64,000 bases of DNA from Patescibacteria group bacterium (GCA_049319825.1 JBMORT010000006.1:80012-144011); one strand, 5' to 3'; counted from the first letter of the stretch, positions 1,984 to 57,909 are shown. The notes: generated from the sequence alone by a model not told the origin. Made by a program: numbers and translations.

Positions 1984-3174
1984 ATGGCAGAAACATTTGA
2001 TAGATCAAAACCACACGTCAATGTGGGCACTATCGGTCACGTCGACCACGGTAAAACTACTTTAACAGCGGCTATTTTAAAAGTATTGGCCGCTCGAGGA
2101 CTTGGCGCTCAGGAAATGAGCGTTGATGAAATCGATAAAGCGCCGGAAGAGAAAGAAAGGGGCATTACCATTTCCACCTCTCACGTCGAATATGAAACGG
2201 AAAAGAGGCACTATGCTCACGTCGACTGCCCGGGACATGCGGACTATGTTAAAAACATGATTACGGGCGCGGCTCAAATGGACGGAGCGATTTTGGTCGT
2301 TTCGGCCACTGATGGCCCGATGCCTCAGACTCGAGAGCACATTTTGCTGGCCAGACAGGTTGGCGTGCCTTACATTGTCGTCTTTTTGAACAAAGTTGAC
2401 ATGGTTCAAGAAAAGGAATTAATCGATTTGGTTGAGGAAGAAGTCAGAGATTTATTGAAAAAATATGAATTTCCAGGCGATGAGACTCCGATCATCCGCG
2501 GGTCAGCGTTAAAAGCGCTCGAGAATCCGGCAGATGAGGAAGCTTCCAAGCCGATCATGGAATTATTGAATGCTTTGGATACATACGTTCCGGTTCCTCA
2601 AAGAGATGTCGATAAACCGTTTTTGATGCCGATCGAAGATATTTTTACCATTGAAGGACGAGGCACGGTAGTGACCGGCAGAATCGAACGAGGCATGGTG
2701 AAAGTCAATGATGAAGTGGAAATTATCGGCTTAAAAGATACTCAAAAAACAGTTGTCACCGGCGTGGAAATGTTTAAGAAAACATTAAACGAGGGTCAGG
2801 CCGGCGATAATGCGGGTATCTTACTTCGAGGCTTAAAAAAGGAAGATGTGGAAAGAGGCCAAGTATTGGCCAAGCCGGGCAGTGTTACTCCTCATACCGA
2901 ATTTTCCGCGGAAGTGTATGTTTTGACCAAAGATGAAGGTGGACGACACAAACCGTTTTTTAAAGGTTATAAACCACAGTTTTATATCAGAACCACGGAT
3001 GTGACCGGAGAAGTGACTTTACCGGAAGGAACCGAAATGGTAATGCCGGGCGACACCGTCACTTTCCAGGTTAAATTGATTGTACCGGTTGCCCTTGAAG
3101 AGCAGCAGCGATTGGCCATTCGAGAAGGCGGCAAAACTATTGGCGCCGGAGTGGTAACGAAAATCATAAAGTAA
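1984..3174 (+). CDS. tuf: Elongation factor Tu
   Basis: [18 protein letters not shown] and NKVD GTPase motifs; 396 aa full length. Confidence 0.97.
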
Positions 3175-4445: not shown

Positions 4446-5147
4446 ATGTTAAAAGGAAAAGTATACAATCAAAGTGGTAAGGAGTTGCGGACCATTGACC
4501 TGCCGGAATTTATATTTGGAGTGGAGACGAATATCGCCGTAATTCATCAGGCGGTCGCAGCGCAACTCGGCAACAGTCGACAGGTTTTAGCTCACGCCAA
4601 AACTCGAGCCGAAGTCCGAGGCGGCGGTCGCAAGCCATGGCGCCAGAAAGGCACGGGTCGCGCCAGACATGGTTCGACCAGATCCCCGATCTGGATCGGC
4701 GGCGGTATTACTTTCGGTCCGACTAAGGAAAGAAATTTTTCTAAAAGGATCAATAAGAAAATGCGCCGAAAAGCGATTTTTATGGTATTATCCGATCGCT
4801 TGGCCGCTGGTGATCTGAAATTTGTCGATAAAATTGATTTTCCTCAAATAAAAACGAAAAAAGCGGCGGATTTATTGAATGATTTGAGAATCAATAAGGC
4901 TTTATTCATTATAGATGAACATAACCGAAATTTTATCAAGTCATGCGCTAATTTGCCGAAAGCGGCAGTGATTGACGCTGATAGTTTAAATGTTATTGAT
5001 TTGTTAAATCATAAAGACGTTATCATGACGGAAAATTCGGTTGATAAAATTGTGAGCACTTATAAAATGTCTTCAAAAGATGACCAGCCAAAGGCAAGCG
5101 AAAAGGCGGAACCGAAAGTCAAGAAGACTGTTAAAAGCAAAAAGTAA
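4446..5147 (+). CDS. rplD: 50S ribosomal protein L4 with a C-terminal Lys-rich extension
   Basis: L4 core ([17 protein letters not shown]); operon position. Confidence 0.9.
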
Positions 5148-17947: not shown

Positions 17948-18024
17948 TGGTGGGTGCGGATGGACTTGAACCATCGACCCCAACGTTATAAGCGTTGTGC
18001 TCTAACCAACTGAGCTACGCACCC
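17948..18024 (-). tRNA. tRNA with anticodon UAU (Ile, reading AUA)
   Basis: Reverse complement folds with acceptor GGGTGCG, anticodon stem CAACG/CGTTG, loop CTTATAA, T-loop TTCAAGT, encoded CCA. Confidence 0.72.
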
Positions 18025-20206: not shown

Positions 20207-23200
20207 TTATTGTTCAGACAAAGTCACGTATCCGCCATACACGCTATCGGCATTGCCGGTATTGACATAGATTGTCAAATAATTGGTGGTGCTGGAAGCG
20301 GTGTCGGTTATATTGATTTCAGTGCCGACAACTCCTGCCCCTAAATTCGTGGCGGTGGTGTTATTGGTGATGTCGTTGGCGTAAACGGTAACGGTGTTTG
20401 TTGTGTCCGAACCGTATACCATGGCCGCGGTCGCCTGAAATCCGGTGGGGATGGCAATGGTTGCCGCCATTTGCGTGGTACCGCTGCTGGCGGTGACCGA
20501 CGTGCCATCAGTGGCGATGGTGGCGTTATCGTCATTGTCATCGGAAATGAAATCCGCTGGTAATAATTTGAGCCGAGTGGTCGAGCCGAACCAGCCGTTT
20601 CGTACCCAGCTGAGATTACCATTGCCGTCAGTTTGCAAAAATTGTCCGGAATTGCCGTCATTCGCCGGCATGGTATATGTGGTATTTTGAGTCATGGCCG
20701 CCGGCGGCTGGAAAATGATTTCATAATCGGTCGGACCTTGCTCGGAATATATTCTTAATTGCCCGTCAGTGCCGTTGCGCCCTGTCCTGATGGCGCCGGT
20801 GGTATCTATTGCGTAGGCAGGAGCGTTGGTGCCGACGCCCAATCGCTTATTGGTATTATCCCAGAAAAAGTTGGTATTATCTTGTGTTATCAAGCCTGAC
20901 GTTCCCGTGAATACGACTGAGCCGGCAGTCAAATCAGAAATAGTTAATGTTTCTCCCGCATTCAGCAAGATATCGTCTCCGGCGGTTGCCGGTGATAAAT
21001 TGGTGCCGGTTCTGGACCAGTAGTTGGTGCCGGCCGAGCTAACACAATCAGTCCAGGCGCCGGATTGATAGCATCTGAATTTATTGGTATTGGTATTGTA
21101 ATAAATCGCACCGTTAGTGCCGGCCGGATCACCGGCATCGCTTTTTTTATCCAAAATCAAAAGATCGGGAGTGGTTGAACCGGCGCCGCCGGCGCCGATT
21201 TGAACATAAGCTGTAGTGCCGGTGCCGGCCGGTTGCAGCGTGATATTTCCGGTAGTGGTGGAAAAGCTGGAGGCGGCGCCGCCTTGCATGGCCAGCGCTG
21301 AAGCCGATGTTAAATTAAGGTTGCCCGATGAAGTTGACCAGGTTGAGGTGGCGCCGGCGGTGAGTGTCAGCGCGCCGGAAGAAGTAAATTGCGAGGCGGA
21401 TGTCGGGGTGAGATTGACCGCCCCTGATCCAGTGGCGTTGAAGTTTCCCGATGTCAGATTAAAAACTATCGGTATGCCCGCGGCGGTGGTGATTGACGCG
21501 CCGTTATCGTACGCGGTTTGCAAGGTGGCGGAAGCCCCGGTGGTATCGCAGTCTTTCCAGGCGCCGCTTTCATAGCAGCGGAATTTATTGGTGGTTGAGT
21601 TATAATAGGTGAGCCCGTTTGAACCGGCCGGATCAGCGCCAATTGAGCCAAGCAATAATTCGCCGGTTATCGTGGTCCTGTCAGTGCTGCCATTGCCCAA
21701 ATTTGAATTGCCTTGAACACCAAGATCGCCGGTTAGCGTTAATCCGGTAAATTGGGGGCTGTCCGCTGTGCCCAATCCGAGAGATGTTCTGGCGGTGTTG
21801 CCGGATTCTGCGACCCAAGTGGTGCCATTGCCGACTATAAAGTCGCTATCAGCGGATGATAATCCAGCAATGGCGGCCAAGGCGCCACTGAGAGAAAAAT
21901 TAATTGTGTCTGTGCCCGCGTTTCCGGTGACGTACATCCCTGTTCCCGCGGTTAAAGCTAAAGTGTCTGTCGACGCGTCCGCTACCGGGTTTGTTCCCAG
22001 CGGAGTGGAAATCGTTTCAAAAAGATTTTGAGCAGCGGCAGAAACAGTGGCCCACTGAGGGTCTGCCCCGGCGCCCTGAGTTTGCAGGACTTGGCCGCTG
22101 GTTCCCGGAGACAGAGTCACCCAATCAGATCCGTCAAAGTAAAGGACTTCGCCCTGAGCGGCGGTAATTGAGGCGATATCATCGAGGTAAGAATCCCAAG
22201 CCTGAACATTGGAGCCGATAGCTAATCCCAAGTTTGATCGAGCGGTGGTGGCGTCGGTGGCGCCAGTGCCGCCTTTGGCGATGCTCAGAGTGCCGCCCAA
22301 ATTGTCCAATGTTAAATTAGCTTCAGTGATATCAATATCGATTTCATTATTGATGGCGTCGTTCGAAACGTTGACTTTGCTTGATCCGGCATTGATATTC
22401 TTAAATTCCAAGTCAGCGCCGGTTTTTTGTAAAAATGGTCCGACCCCGCCAACACCTTGATTCGAGGCGGTATTAGTTTCTCCGCCGCCGCCTGCCGCCC
22501 ACTGCGGATTGGCGCCGGCGCCTTGCGTTTGCAAAAATTGTCCGGAGGTGCCGGCGGCGAGCCTGACCCAGTTGGTGCCGTTAAAGTAAAGGACATCGCC
22601 CTGAGCTTCGCCGGATATCGTTAAATCGGTTACGGTGGTTGAACTATAAGATCCGGAAACGTCCCCGCTGAAAGAAGTGGCAGTGGTCAAGTCATCAGTG
22701 CTGACCTTGTCCCAATTGGCAGTGCTTGTCTGCTGCCAGTTGGCGCCGTCGCCGATAATAATGTTGTTGTTTGTCGGAGTTAAACCGGCGATGTCATCGA
22801 GCTGGACATCCCAAGCCTGAACGCTAGTACCAATGTTCGCATCGAGAAGCAAAGTTCCGGTTGCAGCAGGAATAGTGACAGTAACATCGGCGCCGGGATC
22901 GGCAGCGGTTAACTGAACTTCATTGCCGTCAGCGGAAGTGCCTTCAAACCAGAGAGAATTGCCGTCGTTTCCCGCGGTAGCGGTAAATGCCGCTCCTGAA
23001 GCGACATCGCCAACATCTGTAACATCACCTGAGCCTGCGGCAGCCGCCCACTGCGGATTGGCGCCGGCGCCTTGCGTTTGCAAAAATTGTCCGGAGGTGC
23101 CGGCGGCGAGCCTGACCCAGTTGGTGCCGTTAAAGTAAAGGACATCGCCCTGAGCTTCGCCGGATATCGTTAAATCGGTTACGGTGGTTGAACTATAAGA

Positions 23201-23482
23201 TCCGGAAACGTCCCCGCTGAAAACGGTGCTGGTCGTTAAATCGTCAGCATTGTTTTTATCCCAGGCGGCGGCGTTTAGCCAGGTGGCATTGCCGAGGGCA
23301 TCGGATTGAAGAATAAAACCGGCTCCGGCCCCGTTTGAAAACAATAAATTACCCTGAACGCTGAGATTTCCGCCGGTGGTGATGTTATTGCCAATAGTGG
23401 TGGCTGCCAAAGTGGATGGGCAAATCACTAAATTTAATAAAAGGATTATTCCAAAGGCCTTTAATTTTTTTTTGATGTTCAT
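20207..23482 (-). CDS. Large secreted Gly/Thr/Ser-rich repetitive surface protein (1091 aa)
   Basis: Signal peptide. Three copies of the motif LYF(N/D)G(T/S)(N/D)WV.L..GTSGQ.LQTQGAGA.PQWA. Forms an operon with the 653-aa gene. Confidence 0.85.
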   Translation of the reverse strand: MNIKKKLKAFGIILLLNLVICPSTLAATTIGNNITTGGNLSVQGNLLFSNGAGAGFILQSDALGNATWLNAAAWDKNNADDLTTSTVFSGDVSGSYSSTTVTDLTISGEAQGDVLYFNGTNWVRLAAGTSGQFLQTQGAGANPQWAAAAGSGDVTDVGDVASGAAFTATAGNDGNSLWFEGTSADGNEVQLTAADPGADVTVTIPAATGTLLLDANIGTSVQAWDVQLDDIAGLTPTNNNIIIGDGANWQQTSTANWDKVSTDDLTTATSFSGDVSGSYSSTTVTDLTISGEAQGDVLYFNGTNWVRLAAGTSGQFLQTQGAGANPQWAAGGGGETNTASNQGVGGVGPFLQKTGADLEFKNINAGSSKVNVSNDAINNEIDIDITEANLTLDNLGGTLSIAKGGTGATDATTARSNLGLAIGSNVQAWDSYLDDIASITAAQGEVLYFDGSDWVTLSPGTSGQVLQTQGAGADPQWATVSAAAQNLFETISTPLGTNPVADASTDTLALTAGTGMYVTGNAGTDTINFSLSGALAAIAGLSSADSDFIVGNGTTWVAESGNTARTSLGLGTADSPQFTGLTLTGDLGVQGNSNLGNGSTDRTTITGELLLGSIGADPAGSNGLTYYNSTTNKFRCYESGAWKDCDTTGASATLQTAYDNGASITTAAGIPIVFNLTSGNFNATGSGAVNLTPTSASQFTSSGALTLTAGATSTWSTSSGNLNLTSASALAMQGGAASSFSTTTGNITLQPAGTGTTAYVQIGAGGAGSTTPDLLILDKKSDAGDPAGTNGAIYYNTNTNKFRCYQSGAWTDCVSSAGTNYWSRTGTNLSPATAGDDILLNAGETLTISDLTAGSVVFTGTSGLITQDNTNFFWDNTNKRLGVGTNAPAYAIDTTGAIRTGRNGTDGQLRIYSEQGPTDYEIIFQPPAAMTQNTTYTMPANDGNSGQFLQTDGNGNLSWVRNGWFGSTTRLKLLPADFISDDNDDNATIATDGTSVTASSGTTQMAATIAIPTGFQATAAMVYGSDTTNTVTVYANDITNNTTATNLGAGVVGTEINITDTASSTTNYLTIYVNTGNADSVYGGYVTLSEQ
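22494..22673. repeat. ~180-bp direct repeat, copy 1, inside the 1091-aa gene
   Basis: Identical to 23044-23222 at the nucleotide level (both spurious minus ORFs translate to MSFTLTAPTGSGSPPAPPDNFCKRKAPAPIRSGR). Confidence 0.85.
23044..23222. repeat. ~180-bp direct repeat, copy 2
   Basis: See copy 1. Confidence 0.85.
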
Positions 23483-25010: not shown

Positions 25011-25086
25011 TGGTCGGGGTAGTGAGACTTGAACTCACGACCTCATGCACCCCATGCATGCGCGCTACCAACTGCGCTATACCCCG
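25011..25086 (-). tRNA. tRNA-Pro (anticodon GGG)
   Basis: Reverse complement CGGGGTA...anticodon loop ATGGGGT...T-loop TTCAAGT...TACCCCG-A-CCA. Confidence 0.82.
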
Positions 25087-25087
25087 A

Positions 25088-25185
25088 CATCATGGATCAT
25101 GGATCATGGATCATGGATCATGGATCATGGATCATGGATCATGGATCATGGATCATGGATCATGGATCATGAATCATGGATCAAT
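25088..25185. repeat. Heptanucleotide tandem array (GATCATG/CATGGAT), ~13.5 copies
   Basis: 12 perfect units plus 1 variant from 25091 to 25181, abutting the tRNA-Pro 5' end. Each unit contains GATC and CATG. Confidence 0.95.
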
Positions 25186-25241
25186 GAAACCTGGAATACG
25201 AATTGATTTTAACAAAAAAATTCGTTTTTGTAAACGCTATT

Positions 25242-26372
25242 TTAGATTAAATTTTTTAAGTATTCCAGCACCTGTTCTTTGGCTGAAGCGAAATTGGCAG
25301 TGTCAATCTTGACCCGAATTAAGTCAGCGGCGCCGGTCGGATTGAATTCCGAAAAATTTTTAAGAAGATCGATGTCTTTTTCCGTTTTAATGATGCAGTG
25401 AGTGGCACTAGCATCGGTTTGAAAAAAAATGGCGGTGTGCTGAATCGAGGGTATGCTGCTGATCAGCTCATCGATAACTTCCACCAAATCTTTGCTGGAG
25501 CTGTTGTTGGACTTGAAATCTTCGGCGGTTACGCGTGACCAGGCGATTTTTTGATCGGGATCCGTCTCCAGATGGCTGAGTACCGTGCCCCAGAGTTTAA
25601 GTGTGCCGACAGATTTTGTTTGATAAAGGTTTTTAATAATTAAATCGCGCTGAGCACCGCTGGCGATCAGCTGGGAGGCGATGTTTAGCGAACGCGGAGT
25701 GACTTTTTTATGTCGAAAGCTTTTGGTCTTGTCGATCATGCCGGTCAATAGATAGGTGGCGATGGTTTCATCGATCAGGCTGTCATCGATCGAAGTGAAC
25801 AGTTCGTATAAAATTTCAGCAACGGAAACGGCGGTGACATTAACCATGTTGGTGTGGCCGAAATGTTCATTCTCCGGCAGATTGCAAATGTTAATGATCG
25901 GTGTGTTATAAAAAAAATCAGGATTGTTTTCGTAGATTTTGTCGAGCGATTCGAGATCCGGCGTGTTGAGAGTGAAAATTAAATCATGACGGTATTCTGA
26001 ATTGGAGCAGCTGACGCGATCTTTGGTGAGCTCGCCATTTTTGGGAGTGATAAATATTTTGAGACGATCATCAATGACTTTATAGCTGAATTTATCAACT
26101 TGAGAATTTTGCAGATCAAGATCGATAACCAATTTTCGGAGATTAGTCAAGTCTGGTTTGATGGTATCGGTTCGCGGTAAAAAACTGATATTGGTGGGGA
26201 TTTTAAAATTAGGGCAGACAATATCTCCCTGTTTATCGAGCTTTTTCAGCCAGAAAGCCAGCGCCAAGCTGGAAGCGATCACGTCGGTGCCGTTATTGTT
26301 TCTGAAGGTTATCAGCGGGCTCCGACTTCTTTTGACTGATTCGTAAATTTGTTGCGTGACATTAAGAGCCAT
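25242..26372 (-). CDS. DHH/DHHA1 phosphoesterase-like protein (NrnA-like) with degenerate catalytic motifs
   Basis: DHH-family architecture with degenerate metal-ligand positions (NLPENEHFGH where DHH is expected). The ATG at 26372 is preferred; the track start at 26456 is a TTG. Confidence 0.5.
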   Translation of the reverse strand: MALNVTQQIYESVKRSRSPLITFRNNNGTDVIASSLALAFWLKKLDKQGDIVCPNFKIPTNISFLPRTDTIKPDLTNLRKLVIDLDLQNSQVDKFSYKVIDDRLKIFITPKNGELTKDRVSCSNSEYRHDLIFTLNTPDLESLDKIYENNPDFFYNTPIINICNLPENEHFGHTNMVNVTAVSVAEILYELFTSIDDSLIDETIATYLLTGMIDKTKSFRHKKVTPRSLNIASQLIASGAQRDLIIKNLYQTKSVGTLKLWGTVLSHLETDPDQKIAWSRVTAEDFKSNNSSSKDLVEVIDELISSIPSIQHTAIFFQTDASATHCIIKTEKDIDLLKNFSEFNPTGAADLIRVKIDTANFASAKEQVLEYLKNLI

Positions 26373-26472
26373 AAACAATGGTTGAAGTTTTAGTTTATTG
26401 TTTTTTTTATCGAAAGTCAAGGTTTGAGTTTTTGTGTTTGTTTTGATAAAATACAATCATAATTTATAAATA

Positions 26473-26545
26473 CAAGCGATGCTAATATACCTGCCTGCCG
26501 CCTGCCTGACGGCAGTCAGGGCAGGCAGGTATATTAGCATCGATG
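26473..26545. promoter_or_regulatory. Large palindromic element with two outward-facing promoter-like arms, between the DHH-like gene and valS
   Basis: A 23-bp perfect inverted repeat (CGATGCTAATATACCTGCCTGCC / GGCAGGCAGGTATATTAGCATCG). The right arm abuts the valS ATG. Confidence 0.5.
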
Positions 26546-29182
26546 TTTATGGAAAAGGCATACGAACCCCAAAAATTCGAGGATGAAATTTATAAAAAAT
26601 GGGAAGTAAAAGAATTATTCAATCCCGATAAAGTAAAAGAGCTCCGTGCTGTCGGCAGGGATTCTTTTTCGATCGTGCTGCCGCCGCCGAATGTCACCGG
26701 CACGCTTCATTTGGGCCACGCGGCCATGCTGGCGATCGAAGACCTGATGATCCGCTATCACCGCATGAAAGGATTTGATACGGTTTGGATCCCGGGAACT
26801 GATCACGCGGCCATTGCCACGCAAAATGTTGTGGAAAAGAAAATTTTGAAAGAAACCGGAAAAACCAGGCATGACCTGGGCCGGGAAAGATTTTTGGCGG
26901 AAGTTGAAAAATTTGTCATTCAGTCAAAGGATACCATTCATAAGCAAGTCCGCAAAATGGGCTCGAGCCTGGATTGGTCGAGAGAGGGTTATACCCTGGA
27001 CGAGACGCGAAGCCGGGCAGTGCGCAAAGTTTTTAAAATGATGTATGATGACGGTTTGATTTACCGCGGCTACAGAATTGTGAATTGGTGCCCGCGCTGC
27101 CAGTCCACTCTGGCTGACGATGAAGTTGAATATAAAGATGAGTCGACTAAGCTTTATTATTTCAAATACGATAAGAATTTTCCGATCACCATTGCCACCA
27201 CCAGACCGGAAACCAAGCTGGGTGACACGGCAGTGGCGGTCAATCCCGACGATGAGCGATATAAAAAATATGTCGGCCAGACTTTTGACGTTGATTTTGT
27301 CGGCGTGCCTTTGAAAATAAAAGTCATTGCCGATAAAGCAGTCGATCCGGCCTTCGGCACCGGAGCGCTCGGCGTGACGCCGGCTCACAGCATGGTTGAT
27401 TATGAAATGGCGCAAAAAAATAATTTGCCAATCATCAAGGTAATTGATGAAGAGGGCAAAATGACAGACAAAGTCGGAGATTTTTCCGGCATGACCGCGA
27501 TTGAAGCCAGAGAAGCGGTGGTTAAGGCCTTAGAAAAAGCCGGACTGCAGGAAAAAGTCGAGGACGCGGAGCACAAACTGTCCAGCTGCTACCGCTGCGG
27601 CACCGCGGTCGAGCCTCTGCCTTCAGAGCAATGGTTTGTCAGCGTGGATAAAAAAGTCAAGCGGATCGGCGGCCAGAGCTTAAAGGAAAAAGCGATTGAA
27701 GTGATTAAAAATAAAAAAATTGAAATCATTCCGGAAAGATTTGAAAAAGTATATTTAAACTGGATGGAAAATCTGCATGATTGGTGCATTTCGCGTCAGA
27801 TTTGGTTCGGCCATCGTATTCCTGTTTGGTATAAAGGCGAGGCAAGAGGCAAGAGGCAAGAGGCAGAAGTGTATGTGGGTGAAGAAGCGCCGGAGGGAGC
27901 AGGATGGGTTCAGGATGAAGATACGCTGGACACTTGGTTTTCTTCAGGTTTATGGACATTCACCACTTTGCTGAAAAAAGATTTTAAGGATTTTGAAAAA
28001 AAACATAATTCTGACCTAAAAAGATTTCATCCGATTTCGGTGATGGAAACAGCTTATGATATTTTGTTTTTCTGGGTGGCGCGAATGATTTTGATGACAA
28101 ATTATGTAATGGAAGAAATTCCATTTGAAAAAGTATATTTTCACGGCCTTGTCCGCGACAAGGAAGGCAAGAAGATGTCAAAATCCAGGCCGGAAACAGC
28201 CATTGACCCGATAATCGTCGGCGATAAATACGGCTATGACGCGGTGCGCCTGAGCTTTTTGATCGGCGCCACCCCGGGAAACGATGTCAGATTGTATGAA
28301 GAGAAAATCGAAGGTTTTCGAAACTTCGTCAATAAGCTTTGGAATATTTCTCGATTTATCATTTCTCAAACACAAGGAAAGACAGAAGTTAAGAAAGTGA
28401 AGCCAAAGACCTTGGCGGATAAATGGATTTTGTCGCGACTTAATACGGTTATCAAAGAAGTTACCGAGTCCTTAGATAGTTATCAGTTTTCCGCGGCCGG
28501 CGAAAAGCTGAGAGATTTCACGTATAATGAATTGGCTGACTGGTATCTGGAAGTCGCTAAAGTGGAAAAAGGCAAAGACGAAATCTTGGCGCATATTTTG
28601 GATAGCGTTCTGCGGCTCTGGCATCCGTTCGTGCCGTTTGTGACCGAAGCTATTTTCAGCGAGACAAGCAAGACAAGTATTATGATTCAGGATTGGCCGA
28701 AAGTAAGTAAGAGACTGATTGATGATCAGGCGGAAAAAGAATTTGTCAAAATAAAAGAAGTGATTACGGCCATCAGAAATTTGCGAGCTGAAAACAATGT
28801 CGAACCGGCCAAAAAAATCAAAGCGCAATTTGTTTGCCAGAAAAAGCTTAAAGAAGACGAAGCAATAATTAAAGCTTTGGCTCGATTAGATTCTATTGAG
28901 TATGTTGATGTGGCTGAAAAGCCCGCTGCTTCTGGCGTGGTTGAAGATATTGAAATTTATCTGCCGCTAAAGGGACTGATTGATATTGAAAAAGAAAAAT
29001 CCAGACTTGAAAAGGAAATTGAAAATGTAAAAAAGTACGTTGATTCACAGGAAAAGAAATTGGGTAATGATGAATTTGTCAAAAACGCGCCGGCAAATGT
29101 TGTGGAGGGCGAGAAAGCGAAGCTGGCGGAGGCAAAGGAAAAATTAGAAAAATTAAATAATCAATTAGAAGGATTAAAATAA
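26543..29182 (+). CDS. valS: Valyl-tRNA synthetase
   Basis: HIGH-type PPPNVTGTLHLGHA; KMSKS; C-terminal coiled coil; 879 aa. Confidence 0.95.
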   Translation: MFMEKAYEPQKFEDEIYKKWEVKELFNPDKVKELRAVGRDSFSIVLPPPNVTGTLHLGHAAMLAIEDLMIRYHRMKGFDTVWIPGTDHAAIATQNVVEKKILKETGKTRHDLGRERFLAEVEKFVIQSKDTIHKQVRKMGSSLDWSREGYTLDETRSRAVRKVFKMMYDDGLIYRGYRIVNWCPRCQSTLADDEVEYKDESTKLYYFKYDKNFPITIATTRPETKLGDTAVAVNPDDERYKKYVGQTFDVDFVGVPLKIKVIADKAVDPAFGTGALGVTPAHSMVDYEMAQKNNLPIIKVIDEEGKMTDKVGDFSGMTAIEAREAVVKALEKAGLQEKVEDAEHKLSSCYRCGTAVEPLPSEQWFVSVDKKVKRIGGQSLKEKAIEVIKNKKIEIIPERFEKVYLNWMENLHDWCISRQIWFGHRIPVWYKGEARGKRQEAEVYVGEEAPEGAGWVQDEDTLDTWFSSGLWTFTTLLKKDFKDFEKKHNSDLKRFHPISVMETAYDILFFWVARMILMTNYVMEEIPFEKVYFHGLVRDKEGKKMSKSRPETAIDPIIVGDKYGYDAVRLSFLIGATPGNDVRLYEEKIEGFRNFVNKLWNISRFIISQTQGKTEVKKVKPKTLADKWILSRLNTVIKEVTESLDSYQFSAAGEKLRDFTYNELADWYLEVAKVEKGKDEILAHILDSVLRLWHPFVPFVTEAIFSETSKTSIMIQDWPKVSKRLIDDQAEKEFVKIKEVITAIRNLRAENNVEPAKKIKAQFVCQKKLKEDEAIIKALARLDSIEYVDVAEKPAASGVVEDIEIYLPLKGLIDIEKEKSRLEKEIENVKKYVDSQEKKLGNDEFVKNAPANVVEGEKAKLAEAKEKLEKLNNQLEGLK

Positions 29183-30439: not shown

Positions 30440-30517
30440 AGTTTACGGATTATTACGGATATTACGGAAAAAAAATTAGTATAATTAGTATTCATTCGTA
30501 TATTAGCATCGATACAT

Positions 30518-32303: not shown

Positions 32304-32434
32304 TATAATAAAAAAAGAAACTGGAAATTGTCCGCCAGAGGCGGATACGCCTTCGGCGGAGAAACCGGAAATTTGAAATTAGGGATTGGAATGTTTCCAA
32401 ATCGTTACGAATTGATATTAATCTCACTAAGTTT

Positions 32435-41987: not shown

Positions 41988-42016
41988 CGTCCACTGATCA
42001 AATTTGATATAATAAA

Positions 42017-42047
42017 AGCAGTTTAAACGAATATAAACTGCTTTTTA
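42017..42047 (+). terminator. Intrinsic terminator after the giant gene
   Basis: AGCAGTTTAAAC-gaatat-AAACTGCT followed by TTTTT. Confidence 0.6.
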
Positions 42048-42051
42048 TTTT

Positions 42052-44364
42052 ATGAAATTCAAGGAAGTTTTAATCGATTTTTTCAGCAATTTCATTTTTA
42101 TTTTTATTTTGCTGACAGCGCTTTCCGTATTGTTTTTTTTACCCCCAAATCTGTTCATTATATTGAGCAAACAGCATTTAACATTGGTCTTATCCGCGCT
42201 GCTGTCATTGTTTTATATAGCGTTTGTATTATTGACCAAAAAGCATGATTTTGTCGGCAATAAAATGATTTACATCGCTCCGTTGGCTTTTTTTATGGGC
42301 GGGCTGATATCAGCGATTTTTTCGACATACCGCTACGCCAGCTTTTGGGGGGTGGAAACATGGGGTCTGAGTTTATGCAGTATCGGCGCTATTCTGGCCA
42401 TATTTTTCATTGTCATCAATTATTTGAATAGAAAAAGATACGACTGGCTGCTATTTTCTTTTCTCGCGGTGTTGGCCGTGGCGCAAGTGATATTCATCAT
42501 GACAGTGGCCGGGGCGCTGAATGTTAATTGGTTGCCGGCGAATTTGGCCGGTCAGAATCAAGGATTGGCTCAGCTATCATTGATCAGTACTTTGATTATT
42601 GGCGGGTTACTGAGCACGGATTTGAATAAAAAGAAGCTGGTAAAAATAACGGCGCTAGTCGGTCTAGCATTGTTAAACCTGATGTCATTGATGATAATCA
42701 ACTCATTGGCCGCATGGTTGGTATTGATGGTCGGCTTGATCGTTTTCGGCGGATTAAATTACTGGCAGCGCCGGGATAAATTCCCCAAAGCGGCCATCAC
42801 GGCGGTGGCGCTGATTGCGGCAACGGCCGCTGCTTGGCTGCTCAGCAGCGCATCGGCTATCCCCAAAGTGCCGCTGGAAATTTTGCCCAACGCCAAAACA
42901 TCTTATCATATCGCCTGGCAGGCCGTTAAAGAGCGGCCGCTGCCGGGCGTTGGCCTGAATAATTATCAGCGGGCTTATAATTTGTATCGGCCGGCGGCCA
43001 TCAATCAAACAGCATTTTGGTCGGAAACTTTTTATTATTCATATTCAAAATTCTCCGATATTTTGACTGGCGGCGGGCTGGTGGCCACAGCCGGGTTTTT
43101 GTTTTTTATCGGATATTTTTCATATTTTTCCCTGCGGCGGTCGCTCAAGCGCCGGCCGGACATTTATGTGTTGGGCTTGACAACCGCCTGGCTGGCTTGG
43201 GTGGTCGGAGCTTTTCTTTTTATTCCCAATTTGGCGGTTGATCTGATGGCCATGATTGTTTTGGCGGGTATTGTCGTTTCTTCCAGCGCAGGAGCCCGTC
43301 CTAAAAGAATCAAGAATAATATTCGCGTCATATTAATTTTCAGTCTGATCGCGCTTTTTATCGCTTCAGCGACATTCCTTCTTTTCGCCGTAAAAAGATT
43401 TGTGGCGGCGCAGGCTTTTTTTCAGGGCATTAAATTTTACAATGAAGAGGCCAGGCAAGAACAGGTGGAAAAGTGGTTGGTTTTGGCGGCCGATTGGGAT
43501 AAAAATAATGATCTTTATCAGCGGCAACTAGCACACTTTTACGCGGCCAAATTGCAGAACCGGATATTGAAAATCGATCAAAACGATTTAAACTCCGAAG
43601 CCGGCTTATCGGAAATTACGGCCATCAGCCAGCAAGCCAATGAATTTGCCACCGCCGCTGTTTCCGTTAATAATGACAATTATTTAAATCATTTGGCTCT
43701 TTATAATTTTTATGAGGTTTCCGGCCGGCTGGCGGCGAATGCCGGGCAGTGGCAAGAAAAAAGTTTGCTTAACGCTTTGGCCACTTACCCGACCAATGTA
43801 TATATTCTTCACCAACTGGCCAAGACAGAATTGTCTCAGGCAGATTTGCTCGTTGGCTTAATCGCTCAAGGCGGGCAGGACGAAGCGGTCTTGGGTGATT
43901 TGAAACTGCAAGCCACGAAAAAGGTTGGTCTGGCCAAGGAATATTCCCAGCGGGCTATCGGTTTAAAGCCGGATTATTTGCCCGCATACTTTTCACTGGG
44001 TGTCGCTCAGTGGCTCGGTGGCGAATTTGAACCGGCTCGGGAGTTAATGTTGCTGCTTGATCAGCAGAACCCGAATGATATTGGGGTAAAATATTATTTG
44101 GCATTGATTATGGAAGCAAACAAAGATACGGCGGCGGCTGTAGAATATTTACAGCAAGCCATTGATTTGGCGCCGACATTTTCCGAAGGGCGGTTAATTT
44201 TAGCCAGATTATATCTGAAACAGAAACAAACCAAGCTCGCTAGACAAACGCTGGAAAAAATTTTAGAATATGATCCGCAAAATGAGCAAGTATTACAAAT
44301 TCTAAGTAATTTTTCAGAAAGTAATATTGCCACGCCATTATCTTTACCGAGCAATATTGATTAA
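42052..44364 (+). CDS. Polytopic membrane protein with an O-antigen ligase/polymerase-like domain and C-terminal TPR repeats
   Basis: More than 10 TM helices in the N-terminal ~450 aa; the C-terminal ~300 aa contain TPR-like helical repeats. Confidence 0.7.
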   Translation: MKFKEVLIDFFSNFIFIFILLTALSVLFFLPPNLFIILSKQHLTLVLSALLSLFYIAFVLLTKKHDFVGNKMIYIAPLAFFMGGLISAIFSTYRYASFWGVETWGLSLCSIGAILAIFFIVINYLNRKRYDWLLFSFLAVLAVAQVIFIMTVAGALNVNWLPANLAGQNQGLAQLSLISTLIIGGLLSTDLNKKKLVKITALVGLALLNLMSLMIINSLAAWLVLMVGLIVFGGLNYWQRRDKFPKAAITAVALIAATAAAWLLSSASAIPKVPLEILPNAKTSYHIAWQAVKERPLPGVGLNNYQRAYNLYRPAAINQTAFWSETFYYSYSKFSDILTGGGLVATAGFLFFIGYFSYFSLRRSLKRRPDIYVLGLTTAWLAWVVGAFLFIPNLAVDLMAMIVLAGIVVSSSAGARPKRIKNNIRVILIFSLIALFIASATFLLFAVKRFVAAQAFFQGIKFYNEEARQEQVEKWLVLAADWDKNNDLYQRQLAHFYAAKLQNRILKIDQNDLNSEAGLSEITAISQQANEFATAAVSVNNDNYLNHLALYNFYEVSGRLAANAGQWQEKSLLNALATYPTNVYILHQLAKTELSQADLLVGLIAQGGQDEAVLGDLKLQATKKVGLAKEYSQRAIGLKPDYLPAYFSLGVAQWLGGEFEPARELMLLLDQQNPNDIGVKYYLALIMEANKDTAAAVEYLQQAIDLAPTFSEGRLILARLYLKQKQTKLARQTLEKILEYDPQNEQVLQILSNFSESNIATPLSLPSNID

Positions 44365-49829: not shown

Positions 49830-49935
49830 AGTTGACCCCGATGCTAATATACGAATTGATACTAATGATACTAATGATACTAATATCGCTTTATTCGTAT
49901 AATTCGCATGCATTCGTATATTCGCATCGCTTGCT

Positions 49936-50406
49936 ATGTGCGCCGGATTTGCAATCTATTATGAAAAATTAAAAAAAGCTCAGGTGAAAAAGTGCTTTAC
50001 TGACACCGAGCTTGAGAAATTCAAAAAGGGCGATGAGCTCGAATTTTATTTTTGGCAGAAAAAGCCCTGCGTGCCGATCGAGGAAAACGGCAAAGTTAAT
50101 CTATATGAATGGGGCAATAGAAACAATAAAGAATTGAAAATGCCAAAGACCGGCTGGTGCCGCGCCGAGAGCTTGGCTTCCGGAAAGTGGGATTGGCTCA
50201 AGCCAAAAATTGTGCATGTGCCGGCCACGCGCGGATTTGAAAAGAAAAAGTGGTTCAGGACGCCCAAAGGAATCGAGGCGGTCCTGGCCCGGCAGGGCAA
50301 AGAGAAAAAAGTATATATTTTGACTGAGCCGTCATCCGGTTTTTATTCAAAGTTGACTGGGCATGATAGAATGCCGGTTGGTGATATTAAAGAGATTATA
50401 GAGTGA
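49936..50406 (+). CDS. SOS-response-associated peptidase (SRAP/YedK/HMCES) family protein, short form
   Basis: Begins MC(A)GF (Cys2 nucleophile position) and carries a C-terminal HDRMPV motif. Confidence 0.65.
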   Translation: MCAGFAIYYEKLKKAQVKKCFTDTELEKFKKGDELEFYFWQKKPCVPIEENGKVNLYEWGNRNNKELKMPKTGWCRAESLASGKWDWLKPKIVHVPATRGFEKKKWFRTPKGIEAVLARQGKEKKVYILTEPSSGFYSKLTGHDRMPVGDIKEIIE

Positions 50407-57830: not shown

Positions 57831-57909
57831 TCCTAAGGCGGCAGGCGGGTACATCAGCATCGCTTGCTTCATGCTTCAGCAATAAGTATTCCAGCTGACA
57901 TATAATTTC

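Follow-up and report, generated by a model that had tools for sequence, protein, structure and literature searches.

A palindromic intergenic repeat of Patescibacteria and its association with an arm-flanked GxxExxY nuclease gene

A number of palindromic repeat families have been described from the spacers between bacterial genes, and they form the background to the element considered here, a repeat with the recurrent core motif TATATTMGCATCG that came to notice in a 64,000-nucleotide stretch of DNA from a Patescibacteria group bacterium (GCA_049319825.1 JBMORT010000006.1:80012-144011); this whole stretch is referred to below as the window. The repetitive extragenic palindromic (REP) sequences of Pseudomonas and E. 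coli occur as inverted doublets, or REPINs, which can form hairpins and are present as many intergenic copies, and the associated RAYT genes are flanked by inverted repeats whose sequence covaries with the RAYT subfamily. The Correia or NEMIS elements of Neisseria are palindromic sequences of ~100-150 bp with terminal inverted repeats, which lie adjacent to genes, are co-transcribed with them and have -10-like TATA ends that can drive the neighbouring gene; we know of no cognate transposase for them. In Coxiella burnetii the intervening sequence (IVS) is 428 nt long, has a 28-bp terminal stem, contains an S23p open reading frame (ORF) and is cut by RNase III (PMC4990558). It is proposed here that the motif is probably the outer arm end of an intergenic repeat with palindromic structure, and that this repeat is a derivative of a selfish nuclease cassette resembling a REPIN or a miniature inverted-repeat transposable element (MITE).

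Comparison with each of these systems reveals both likenesses and differences. As in the REPIN/RAYT system there are inverted doublets in spacers, a single small gene between inverted repeats and covariation of arm and gene subfamily, but the enclosed gene encodes a PD-(D/E)XK protein (TIGR04256, PF13366) and not a Y1 HUH (IS200/IS605-like) transposase, each arm is built as an array of tandem 8-nt units where the REP sequence is one imperfect palindrome, the coding start is overlapped by one of the arms, and the arm is common to lineages at the level of candidate phyla whereas REPINs are species-specific. The likeness to Correia elements, a palindromic repeat beside genes with TATA-containing ends, would hold if the outward promoter considered below is real; sequence and host are unrelated, however, Correia elements have a TA target duplication, of which none was seen here, and the present element has a gene-bearing full-length form. 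The ORF-bearing 23S rRNA IVSs are also selfish elements of ~430-480 nt with terminal inverted repeats and a small ORF that starts by the 5' arm, they are tolerated where the host RNA can be interrupted, and loci of the S23p family (PF05635) with the same layout occur in the material examined here. The present element differs in lying between protein-coding genes and not in rRNA helices 25 or 45, in its ORF (PF13366, not PF05635) and in showing no pairing covariation. Leaderless sigma-70 promoters, known from Actinobacteria, Deinococcus and the valS genes of relatives, likewise place a TATAAT-like hexamer near an ATG that has no Shine-Dalgarno sequence, but the distance is 6-7 nt rather than the ~13 nt found here, and the present motif loses none of its conservation where it is directed away from starts. 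With MITEs the element shares terminal inverted repeats, a length of 70-100 bp, the absence of coding capacity and several copies per genome. A longer form with the same ends encodes the GxxExxY protein, a hypothetical mobilising enzyme that is not among the known transposases, and no target-site duplication is seen. Set against the known families, the element fails a defining feature of each, be it target duplication, RAYT enzyme or rRNA location.

The repeat arm and the gene it encloses

The arm is ~37 nt long and is composed of four tandem 8-nt ATTNGYAT units at spacings of 9, 10 and 8 nt, ending in ...ATCG, with the TATATT hexamer created at the junction of the abutting units 3 and 4. In the usual form two arms stand back to back, both directed outward, over 70-100 bp in total. 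A metagenome scan with the exact 18-mer ATTCGTATATTMGCATCG gave at least 120 matches, and the counts for the family given here and below are those among the matches listed. Seven of the 120 listed matches (L095, L124, L130, L156, L158, L165, L184) were excluded as unrelated conserved sequence from outside the Candidate Phyla Radiation (CPR), with no tandem units. The arm is shared by at least 113, with conservation extending from -24 to +13 around GTATATT, and at least 73 non-redundant arm pairs and at least 69 single arms were counted, four of the pairs within 13.6 kb of L133. TATATT is invariant in the arms and palindromic pairing is a real, general property of the related loci; the small repeat element family suggested by an earlier sequence-only reading of the window does exist. 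Nine further matches to the 18-mer in viral contigs (L228-L236) all represent one unrelated phage sequence, apparently coding and without tandem units, and there is no sign that phages carry the element.

It is the sequence of the arms, rather than their pairing, that is maintained. The two arm types differ systematically at ~7 of 37 positions, giving A-C and U-C mismatches on the sense strand. Arm complementarity within pairs was 0.589 compared with 0.594 across pairs, and 1241 of 2000 permutations reached the observed value; this within- versus cross-pair test thus detected no compensatory covariation between the arms of one element. Conservation of sequence without covariation points to recognition of the arms by a protein.

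A candidate for such a protein is encoded between the arms themselves. At six loci outward arms ~450 bp apart enclose an ORF of ~130 aa, and the enclosed gene (~134 aa) matches TIGR04256 'GxxExxY protein' at 67-69 bits (cutoff 35) together with Pfam PDDEXK_3 (PF13366) and no other family. A tblastn search of the metagenome loci identified eight main-family GxxExxY genes, of which one is a pseudogene, and all eight lie between two outward arms. Three NCBI metagenome-assembled genomes have the gene likewise between both arms, with no further arm in the 20-kb flanks of the gene, and two more contexts, one a type IV pilus operon and the other an operon whose genes contain inteins, again have an arm-flanked GxxExxY gene. 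Altogether, both arms surround the gene in 15 of 15 cases, and in one of the two latter contexts, at L216, a full-length copy and a gene-less copy are 1.1 kb apart. The layout of the cassette is stereotyped. On its 5' side the stop codon of the upstream gene is followed after 0-6 nt by CGATRCYAATATACTA-ATG-CAT-ACT-AAT-GAT-ACG-AAT..., the arm running into the ORF and supplying both the start codon and the near-invariant N-terminus MHTNDTN; on its 3' side the stop codon of the ORF is followed after 0-3 nt by ATTAGTATMATTAGTATTAATTYGTATATTRGYATCG and, 3-8 nt beyond that, by the ATG of the next gene.

The arm sequence covaries with the GxxExxY subfamily: different inverted tandem-unit arms enclose both a second paralogue in one of the genomes (L206) and a distant homologue (L122), and a homologue on a Treponema plasmid has a 16-nt flanking inverted repeat. 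Homologues number 1256 at E <= 1e-10, the named ones being from Pacebacteria, Azambacteria, Portnoybacteria, Harrisonbacteria and Minisyncoccota. Between named candidate phyla the protein is 63-79% identical, which makes it more conserved than ribosomal protein uL2 among the carriers. An AlphaFold (AF2) model with a predicted local distance difference test (pLDDT) score of 85 has a minimal PD-(D/E)XK fold, whose neighbours in a fold search (Cas4, alkaline exonucleases, Hjc, tRNA-splicing endonucleases and the catalytic domain of the homing endonuclease I-Bth0305I) are those of a generic PD-(D/E)XK protein; the PDB gave no match by sequence.

The N-terminus (N-D-T-N-K-N) and the C-terminus (I-D-T-D-x-K-N-K-F) of GxxExxY are encoded by similar DNA, GATACnrAT...AAAAAT (alignment A1). 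A short direct repeat at the two ends of the gene could allow an internal deletion that leaves a gene-less pair, and the centres of gene-less pairs, for example GATACGAAT-AAATAA-ATTAGTAT, are consistent with deletion through a terminal direct repeat.

Two observations on related arrangements may be recorded. The operon at L206:199-6680 contains two different GxxExxY cassettes and two intein-containing genes (Intein_splicing, with faint LAGLIDADG_3 matches), a dense stacking of selfish elements in a small genome. Genes of the PF05635 family (23S_rRNA_IVP, four-helix-bundle) at L202:11550-12018 and L204:15904-16367, in metagenome-assembled genomes of Patescibacteria, are bracketed by inverted arms of 34-48 nt, in the same order of arm, ORF and arm as in the GxxExxY cassette, with short tandem units (GCTGGTN, TCTAAAN) that are unrelated to the motif.

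The mechanism envisaged is that the cassette would be a selfish, horizontally moving element, the arms of which could serve as the sequence-specific recognition sites of its own nuclease. Internal deletion would yield gene-less pairs that persist or spread as non-autonomous copies, and these would stand to the cassette as MITEs do to transposons or REPINs to RAYT genes. Copies would survive only in the spacers of a few nucleotides that separate a stop codon from the start codon following it, and such survival would make the motif seem to 'run into' the ATG at a near-constant 3-8 nt. The start-facing arm may in addition carry an outward sigma-70-like promoter, with TATATT as its hexamer, a start at the final G of GCATCG and a leader of ~6-7 nt, which would keep the downstream gene expressed.

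A number of points weigh against this proposal. There is no target-site duplication or conserved target, the flanks being merely A-rich and T-rich. Identical GxxExxY proteins were each found in a single genomic context only, which means that there is no direct sign of recent transposition. None of the known transposases is, to our knowledge, a PD-(D/E)XK protein of 134 aa, and it is at this stage purely conjectural that GxxExxY binds or cleaves the arms. The gene is also absent from the 64-kb window by tblastn. The analogous arms around PF05635 genes, which do not encode nucleases, suggest that the architecture may serve, for example, an RNA stem rather than recognition by a nuclease. Finally, the bias in arm orientation (26 versus 6, see below) hints at a role at the level of the host, for example as a promoter; the pattern used for the scan did, however, favour the arm type in question.

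In its widest form the proposal is distinctly more speculative. GxxExxY proteins could perhaps be the enzymes of an unrecognised class of selfish cassette, with inverted tandem-unit arms on either side of a ~134-aa PD-(D/E)XK nuclease, that moves among divergent Patescibacteria and seeds operon spacers with palindromes, and these might double as portable expression modules (outward promoter or processing stem) for genes without a Shine-Dalgarno sequence; together with the PF05635 cassettes and the other hairpins described below, 'IVS-like' elements might then be general in the intergenic DNA of these reduced genomes.

Placement between genes and distribution among genomes

An important consideration is where the arms lie with respect to genes. 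Arms lie within 0-20 nt of gene starts and of gene ends in about equal numbers (54 and 56, respectively), and are as tight at ends as at starts. The distance from stop codon to arm is 2-7 nt, and that from the GCATCG end of the arm to the next ATG ranges from 3 to 8 nt with a peak at 5-7 nt, which puts the end of TATATT ~13 nt before the ATG. Amongst 64 typed pairs, 53 are between co-directional genes, six are divergent and five convergent. Of 48 start-abutting arms with a called upstream neighbour, 46 follow a co-directional gene at a median distance of 43 nt, which is the length of the partner arm; the start-abutting arms are thus inside operons and not at their heads, and even occupy consecutive spacers of the S10 operon. 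Where a pair lies between co-directional genes, the ...AGCATCG arm points to the start 26 times and to the end six times, and TATATT and the whole arm are equally conserved where they face gene 3' ends or lie in convergent pairs. The genes downstream of arms include those for L7/L12, DnaJ, GroEL, DnaE, HIT, L11, S2, a response regulator, FBPase and TopA, and at L131 a tRNA begins 6 nt past the motif; all copies lie between protein or tRNA genes. On a reading of insertion and loss, arms that fill stop-to-start spacers of a few nucleotides need no promoter to explain their apparent fusion to the ATG.

The window organism belongs to the Patescibacteria (CPR). Its best ValRS matches in a set of 185,579 species genomes are 51-60% identical and labelled Paceibacterota, Moraniibacteriota, Falkowbacteria and similar. 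The carriers of the element are Patescibacteria of the Paceibacteria or 'Parcubacteria' type, in which the family is widespread. Compared with the window, the carrier contigs are 73-79% identical in EF-Tu, 40-60% in ribosomal proteins and 42% in ValRS, and amongst themselves they are 46-69% identical in uL2, except for one pair at 84%. Neither a regular expression nor an nhmmer profile found a copy in 1.3 Mb from 80 GTDB relatives chosen by ValRS (51-60% identical). Copies are missing from near relatives and present in distant carriers, a patchy distribution, and a clade-wide promoter is ruled out by the lack of any copy in the 80 closer relatives. Near-invariance of 37 nt of non-coding sequence over such distances, with absence from closer kin, is not the behaviour of a promoter or terminator.

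The S10 and spc operons provide orthologous spacers in which occupancy can be compared. Copies are present in rplW|rplB, rplB|rpsS and rpsS|rplV of L133, in rplB|rpsS and rplN|rplX of L168, in rplV|rpsC of L154, in rplN|rplX of both L172 and L151, and in tuf|rpsJ of L186, and the window has none. The occupancy of orthologous ribosomal spacers differs between L154 and L172 despite an identity of 84% in uL2, and in these spacers there is accordingly the insertion polymorphism at orthologous sites by which MITEs are recognised. The simplest reading is that the element is inserted and lost where a compact genome tolerates it, in the spacers between stop and start codons, and its tight fit to gene ends as well as starts, the patchy ribosomal spacers and a variant private to two loci of the window (type A, described below) are all insertion-like traits.

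Spacers of ribosomal operons that lack the motif often hold other palindromes, made of inverted arrays of 7-nt tandem units (AGTCGTA, TGTCAAA, GAAAAGT), at L154:8320-8408, in the rplB|rpsS spacer of L172 (~4805-4890, minus strand) and in rplV|rpsC of L168 (~2990-3080). Hairpins with inverted tandem units may form a class that is general in the intergenic DNA of such genomes.

The motif strings were not found in any paper, nor did the literature yield a link between Patescibacteria and leaderless promoters or between MITEs and CPR, or anything functional on GxxExxY or PF13366. The link of a widespread palindromic repeat to a nuclease family so far uncharacterised is new and open to direct test, and should the association hold, the ATTNGYAT arm would become a candidate substrate on which the GxxExxY/PDDEXK_3 family can be tested. 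The genomes of Patescibacteria are usually called streamlined, yet these elements are peppered through them, even in ribosomal-protein operons. There are also practical consequences, in that elements flush with stop and start codons resemble promoters and can mislead the calling of starts, as at valS, and that they break assemblies, many carrier contigs being shorter than 2 kb. Should the start-facing arm be a promoter, it would represent a compact, portable expression signal in organisms in which the initiation of transcription and translation is almost uncharted.

Promoter, RNA and operator explanations

The first alternative is that the motif is an outward promoter of sigma-70 type, with TATATT as the -10 element, a start on the last G of GCATCG or beside it, and an mRNA without a Shine-Dalgarno sequence whose leader is 0-7 nt long. 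Both key bases of the sigma-70 -10 element, the A at its second and the T at its sixth position, occur in TATATT, and the geometry TATATT-N6-G(+1) is canonical. A weak -35 element occurs at a fitting distance, as CTGACG-18-TATATT at valS (9/12) and as TTnGTA at 17 bp in the consensus. The narrow 5-7-nt spacing to the ATG, the tRNA at the same 6 nt (L131) and the predominance of the start-facing ...AGCATCG arm also accord with a promoter, and where the upstream neighbour is divergent (L149, L185 and valS of the window) a promoter must be near or in the element. Against this, the arm is no less conserved when it faces 3' ends or lies between convergent genes, nearly all start-abutting arms stand within co-directional runs, including the consecutive S10 spacers, and canonical TTGACA-type promoters are present elsewhere in the window. 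Consensus promoter and terminator scans gave no enrichment over shuffles near the elements, and conservation of 37 nt across ~50% ribosomal-protein identity combined with absence from closer relatives is difficult to accommodate. A promoter as the explanation of the motif is possible but doubtful, and is at best a secondary property.

The positions of the start codons bear on the same question. The sequence-only reading took the right arm of the palindrome before valS to run straight into the valS ATG with TATATT 7 nt away, and argued that, if TATATT is a -10 element, such transcripts would be leaderless or nearly so. The motif does touch the ATG at 26543, but the ValRS of relatives aligns from residue 3, corresponding to an ATG at 26549, and 26543 may therefore not be the true start. 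With a start at 26549, GCATCG would stand 6 nt from the ATG of valS, just as it does at argS and at the SRAP-like gene. The latter two have 13 nt between TATATT and the ATG, the mode in related loci is 12-14 nt, and a distance of 7 nt applies only to the valS ATG at 26543, so that the geometry is not that of the leaderless valS genes of relatives, with 6-7 nt. Many distant relatives have TTGACT-N17-TAATTT-N6-ATG at valS, preceded by a palindrome AAGTCAA...TTGACTT (L008, L009, L012, L016, L021, L024, L025, L029, L032, L033, L050 and L058, in 60 nt of upstream sequence), which is the classical geometry of a leaderless promoter, suggests that leaderless valS mRNAs may be common in this part of CPR and is a further point in favour of a promoter. 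The statement in that reading that other genes of the window use AGGAGG ribosome-binding sites was not upheld, as a Shine-Dalgarno core (GGAG, GAGG or AGGA at -21..-4) precedes only four of 41 ATG-start genes, most genes beginning 3-10 nt past the previous stop (TAAnnnnATG). To judge from the sequence, translation initiation here is largely Shine-Dalgarno-independent. Lack of a Shine-Dalgarno sequence, put forward as a check on genes carrying the motif, is the rule in this genome and, being general, does not mark those genes.

The second alternative, slightly less probable, is a function at the level of RNA, in which the arms pair in a polycistronic transcript and the stem would serve for processing by RNase III, for stabilising or insulating the mRNA, or for termination in both directions between cistrons. 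The pairs in the window fold well (valS palindrome, -53.6 kcal/mol, z = -9.4; pyk/SRAP-like palindrome, -25.5 kcal/mol, z = -3.0). The outward flanks are T-rich on both sides of the elements, so that an A-tract precedes the hairpin and a U-tract follows; the consensus of related loci has a T-run past GCATCG, whereas the window copies continue instead with ATGTTT, ATACAT and CTTGCT. The PF05635 genes at L202 and L204 share inverted arms and an ORF of ~120-135 aa within ~450-500 nt overall, matching the Coxiella IVS, and the same operons hold unrelated inverted tandem-unit hairpins in other spacers. A canonical hairpin with a T-run, AGCAGTTTAAACGAATATAAACTGCTTTTTATTTT, at 41990-42051 of the window is flush with the ATG at 42052 of a 770-aa gene, and terminator-like structures at the next start thus also occur without the motif. 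Against pairing stand the absence of compensatory covariation, the systematic mismatches between the arm types and the many arms without a partner (at least 69). Rfam 15 at gathering score found only tRNAs in the window and eight related loci, and a terminator consensus scan did not call the element sites, its loop limit being 3-8 nt and the stems here long and A+U-rich.

The third alternative, that the arms are an array of operators bound by a dimeric or multimeric transcription factor with a regulon that includes aminoacyl-tRNA synthetase genes, is very improbable: the arrangement is palindromic, with four phased 8-nt units in each arm over a putative core promoter, and sequence rather than pairing is conserved, but half of the arms face gene ends, close relatives differ in the occupancy of orthologous spacers, and the downstream genes are an unrelated housekeeping mix without a common theme, plus a tRNA, which argues against the dimeric-regulator site of the sequence-only reading. 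Sigma-54 promoters, DnaA boxes, integron attC sites, DNA uptake sequences and TIGR arrays were set aside from sequence alone.

Copies in the window and neighbouring features

The repeat load of the 64-kb window consists of three loci and one decayed copy (Table 1). There are five exact copies of TATATTMGCATCG, at 26477-26489(-), 26530-26542(+), 30499-30511(+), 49839-49851(-) and 49917-49929(+), compared with 0.02 +/- 0.14 expected from dinucleotide shuffles, and none of 100 shuffles reached five; with up to two mismatches there are 12 matches against 4.05 expected. The recurrence reported by the sequence-only reading is thus real, and its individual palindromes also stood up. A repeat finder returned the perfect 23-nt inverted repeat before valS as 26477-26499 / 26520-26542, the inverted copy at 49839 forms a second palindrome that is 81% complementary over 37 nt (49839-49875 / 49893-49929), and the degenerate copy near 57.8 kb has two mismatches in the 13-mer and is 90% complementary over 31 nt (57836-57866 to 26473-26503). 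The similarity extends further than first noted, 30475-30511 and 49839-49875 being 92% identical over 37 nt.

In the valS element the shared terminal 14-mer is joined to another interior, composed of GGCAGG-type units ('type A'), and the nhmmer arm profile matches only the terminal 16 nt of each arm of this element. The type A interior recurs only at 57.8 kb of the window and in no other locus examined; RNA folding gave no significant structure for that decayed arm. At argS, direct reading of 30444..30468 showed the terminal 13-mer to be absent, and its designation as a partner arm would follow from its likeness to the paired elements.

Table 1. Arms and elements located in the 64-kb window
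Feature	Position	Strand	Remarks
Gene-less palindromic element between DHH-like ORF and valS (divergent)	26477..26542	.	Two outward arms with identical termini GTATATTAGCATCG
Terminal 13-mer, right arm of valS element	26530..26542	+	Touches ATG 26543; in-frame ATG 26549 is 6 nt beyond the motif
Terminal 13-mer, left arm of valS element	26477..26489	-	Directed at DHH-like gene
Putative degenerate partner arm of argS element	30444..30468	.	Three TACGGA(T) units just past tyrS stop (30439)
Start-facing arm, four ATTNGYAT units	30475..30511	+	6 nt before argS ATG 30518; nhmmer 35.9 bits, E 4e-10
Possible arm remnant, reversed orientation	32406..32431	-	Just before ATG 32435; weak nhmmer match, 8.9 bits, E 0.15; uncertain
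Left arm, pyk/SRAP-like element	49839..49885	-	ATTAGTATC x3, ATTCGTAT, ATTAGCATCG; nhmmer 37.1 bits; begins 9 nt past pyk stop (49829), directed into pyk 3' end
Right arm, pyk/SRAP-like element	49893..49929	+	C variant TATATTCGCATCG; 6 nt before ATG 49936; nhmmer 36.6 bits
Decayed single type A arm	57836..57866	+	GGCAGGCGGGTACATCAGCATCGCTTG; between permease and glycosyltransferase genes

The identities of valS, tyrS, argS and pyk were confirmed. An exact-protein search gave no record for ValRS read from the ATG at 26543, and placed ArgRS on a single Logan contig of 16.7 kb. The 404-aa DHH-like ORF (25242-26456) has no Pfam match; its likely ATG is near 26372, ~105 nt from the left motif, and it has a promoter-like site of its own, TTGACT-N17-TAAACT. 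The ORF at 49936-50406 encodes 156 aa that start Met-Cys (MCAGFAIYY) in the manner of SRAP/YedK proteins, and although the product has no Pfam match at E <= 0.001 the start codon would be well placed if it is indeed SRAP-like.

Three other features of the window are of note. About 14 tandem ATCATGG heptamers at 25075-25204 are directly upstream (minus strand) of tRNA-Pro(GGG) at 25011-25086. A tRNA-Ile with the anticodon UAU, which is unusual for bacteria, was called by ARAGORN at 17948-18024 beside tRNA-Val(GAC). An ORF of 1091 aa at 20207-23482 on the minus strand is internally repetitive, with long direct repeats (244 nt at 89%; 115-nt copies), and is probably a repeat-rich surface protein.

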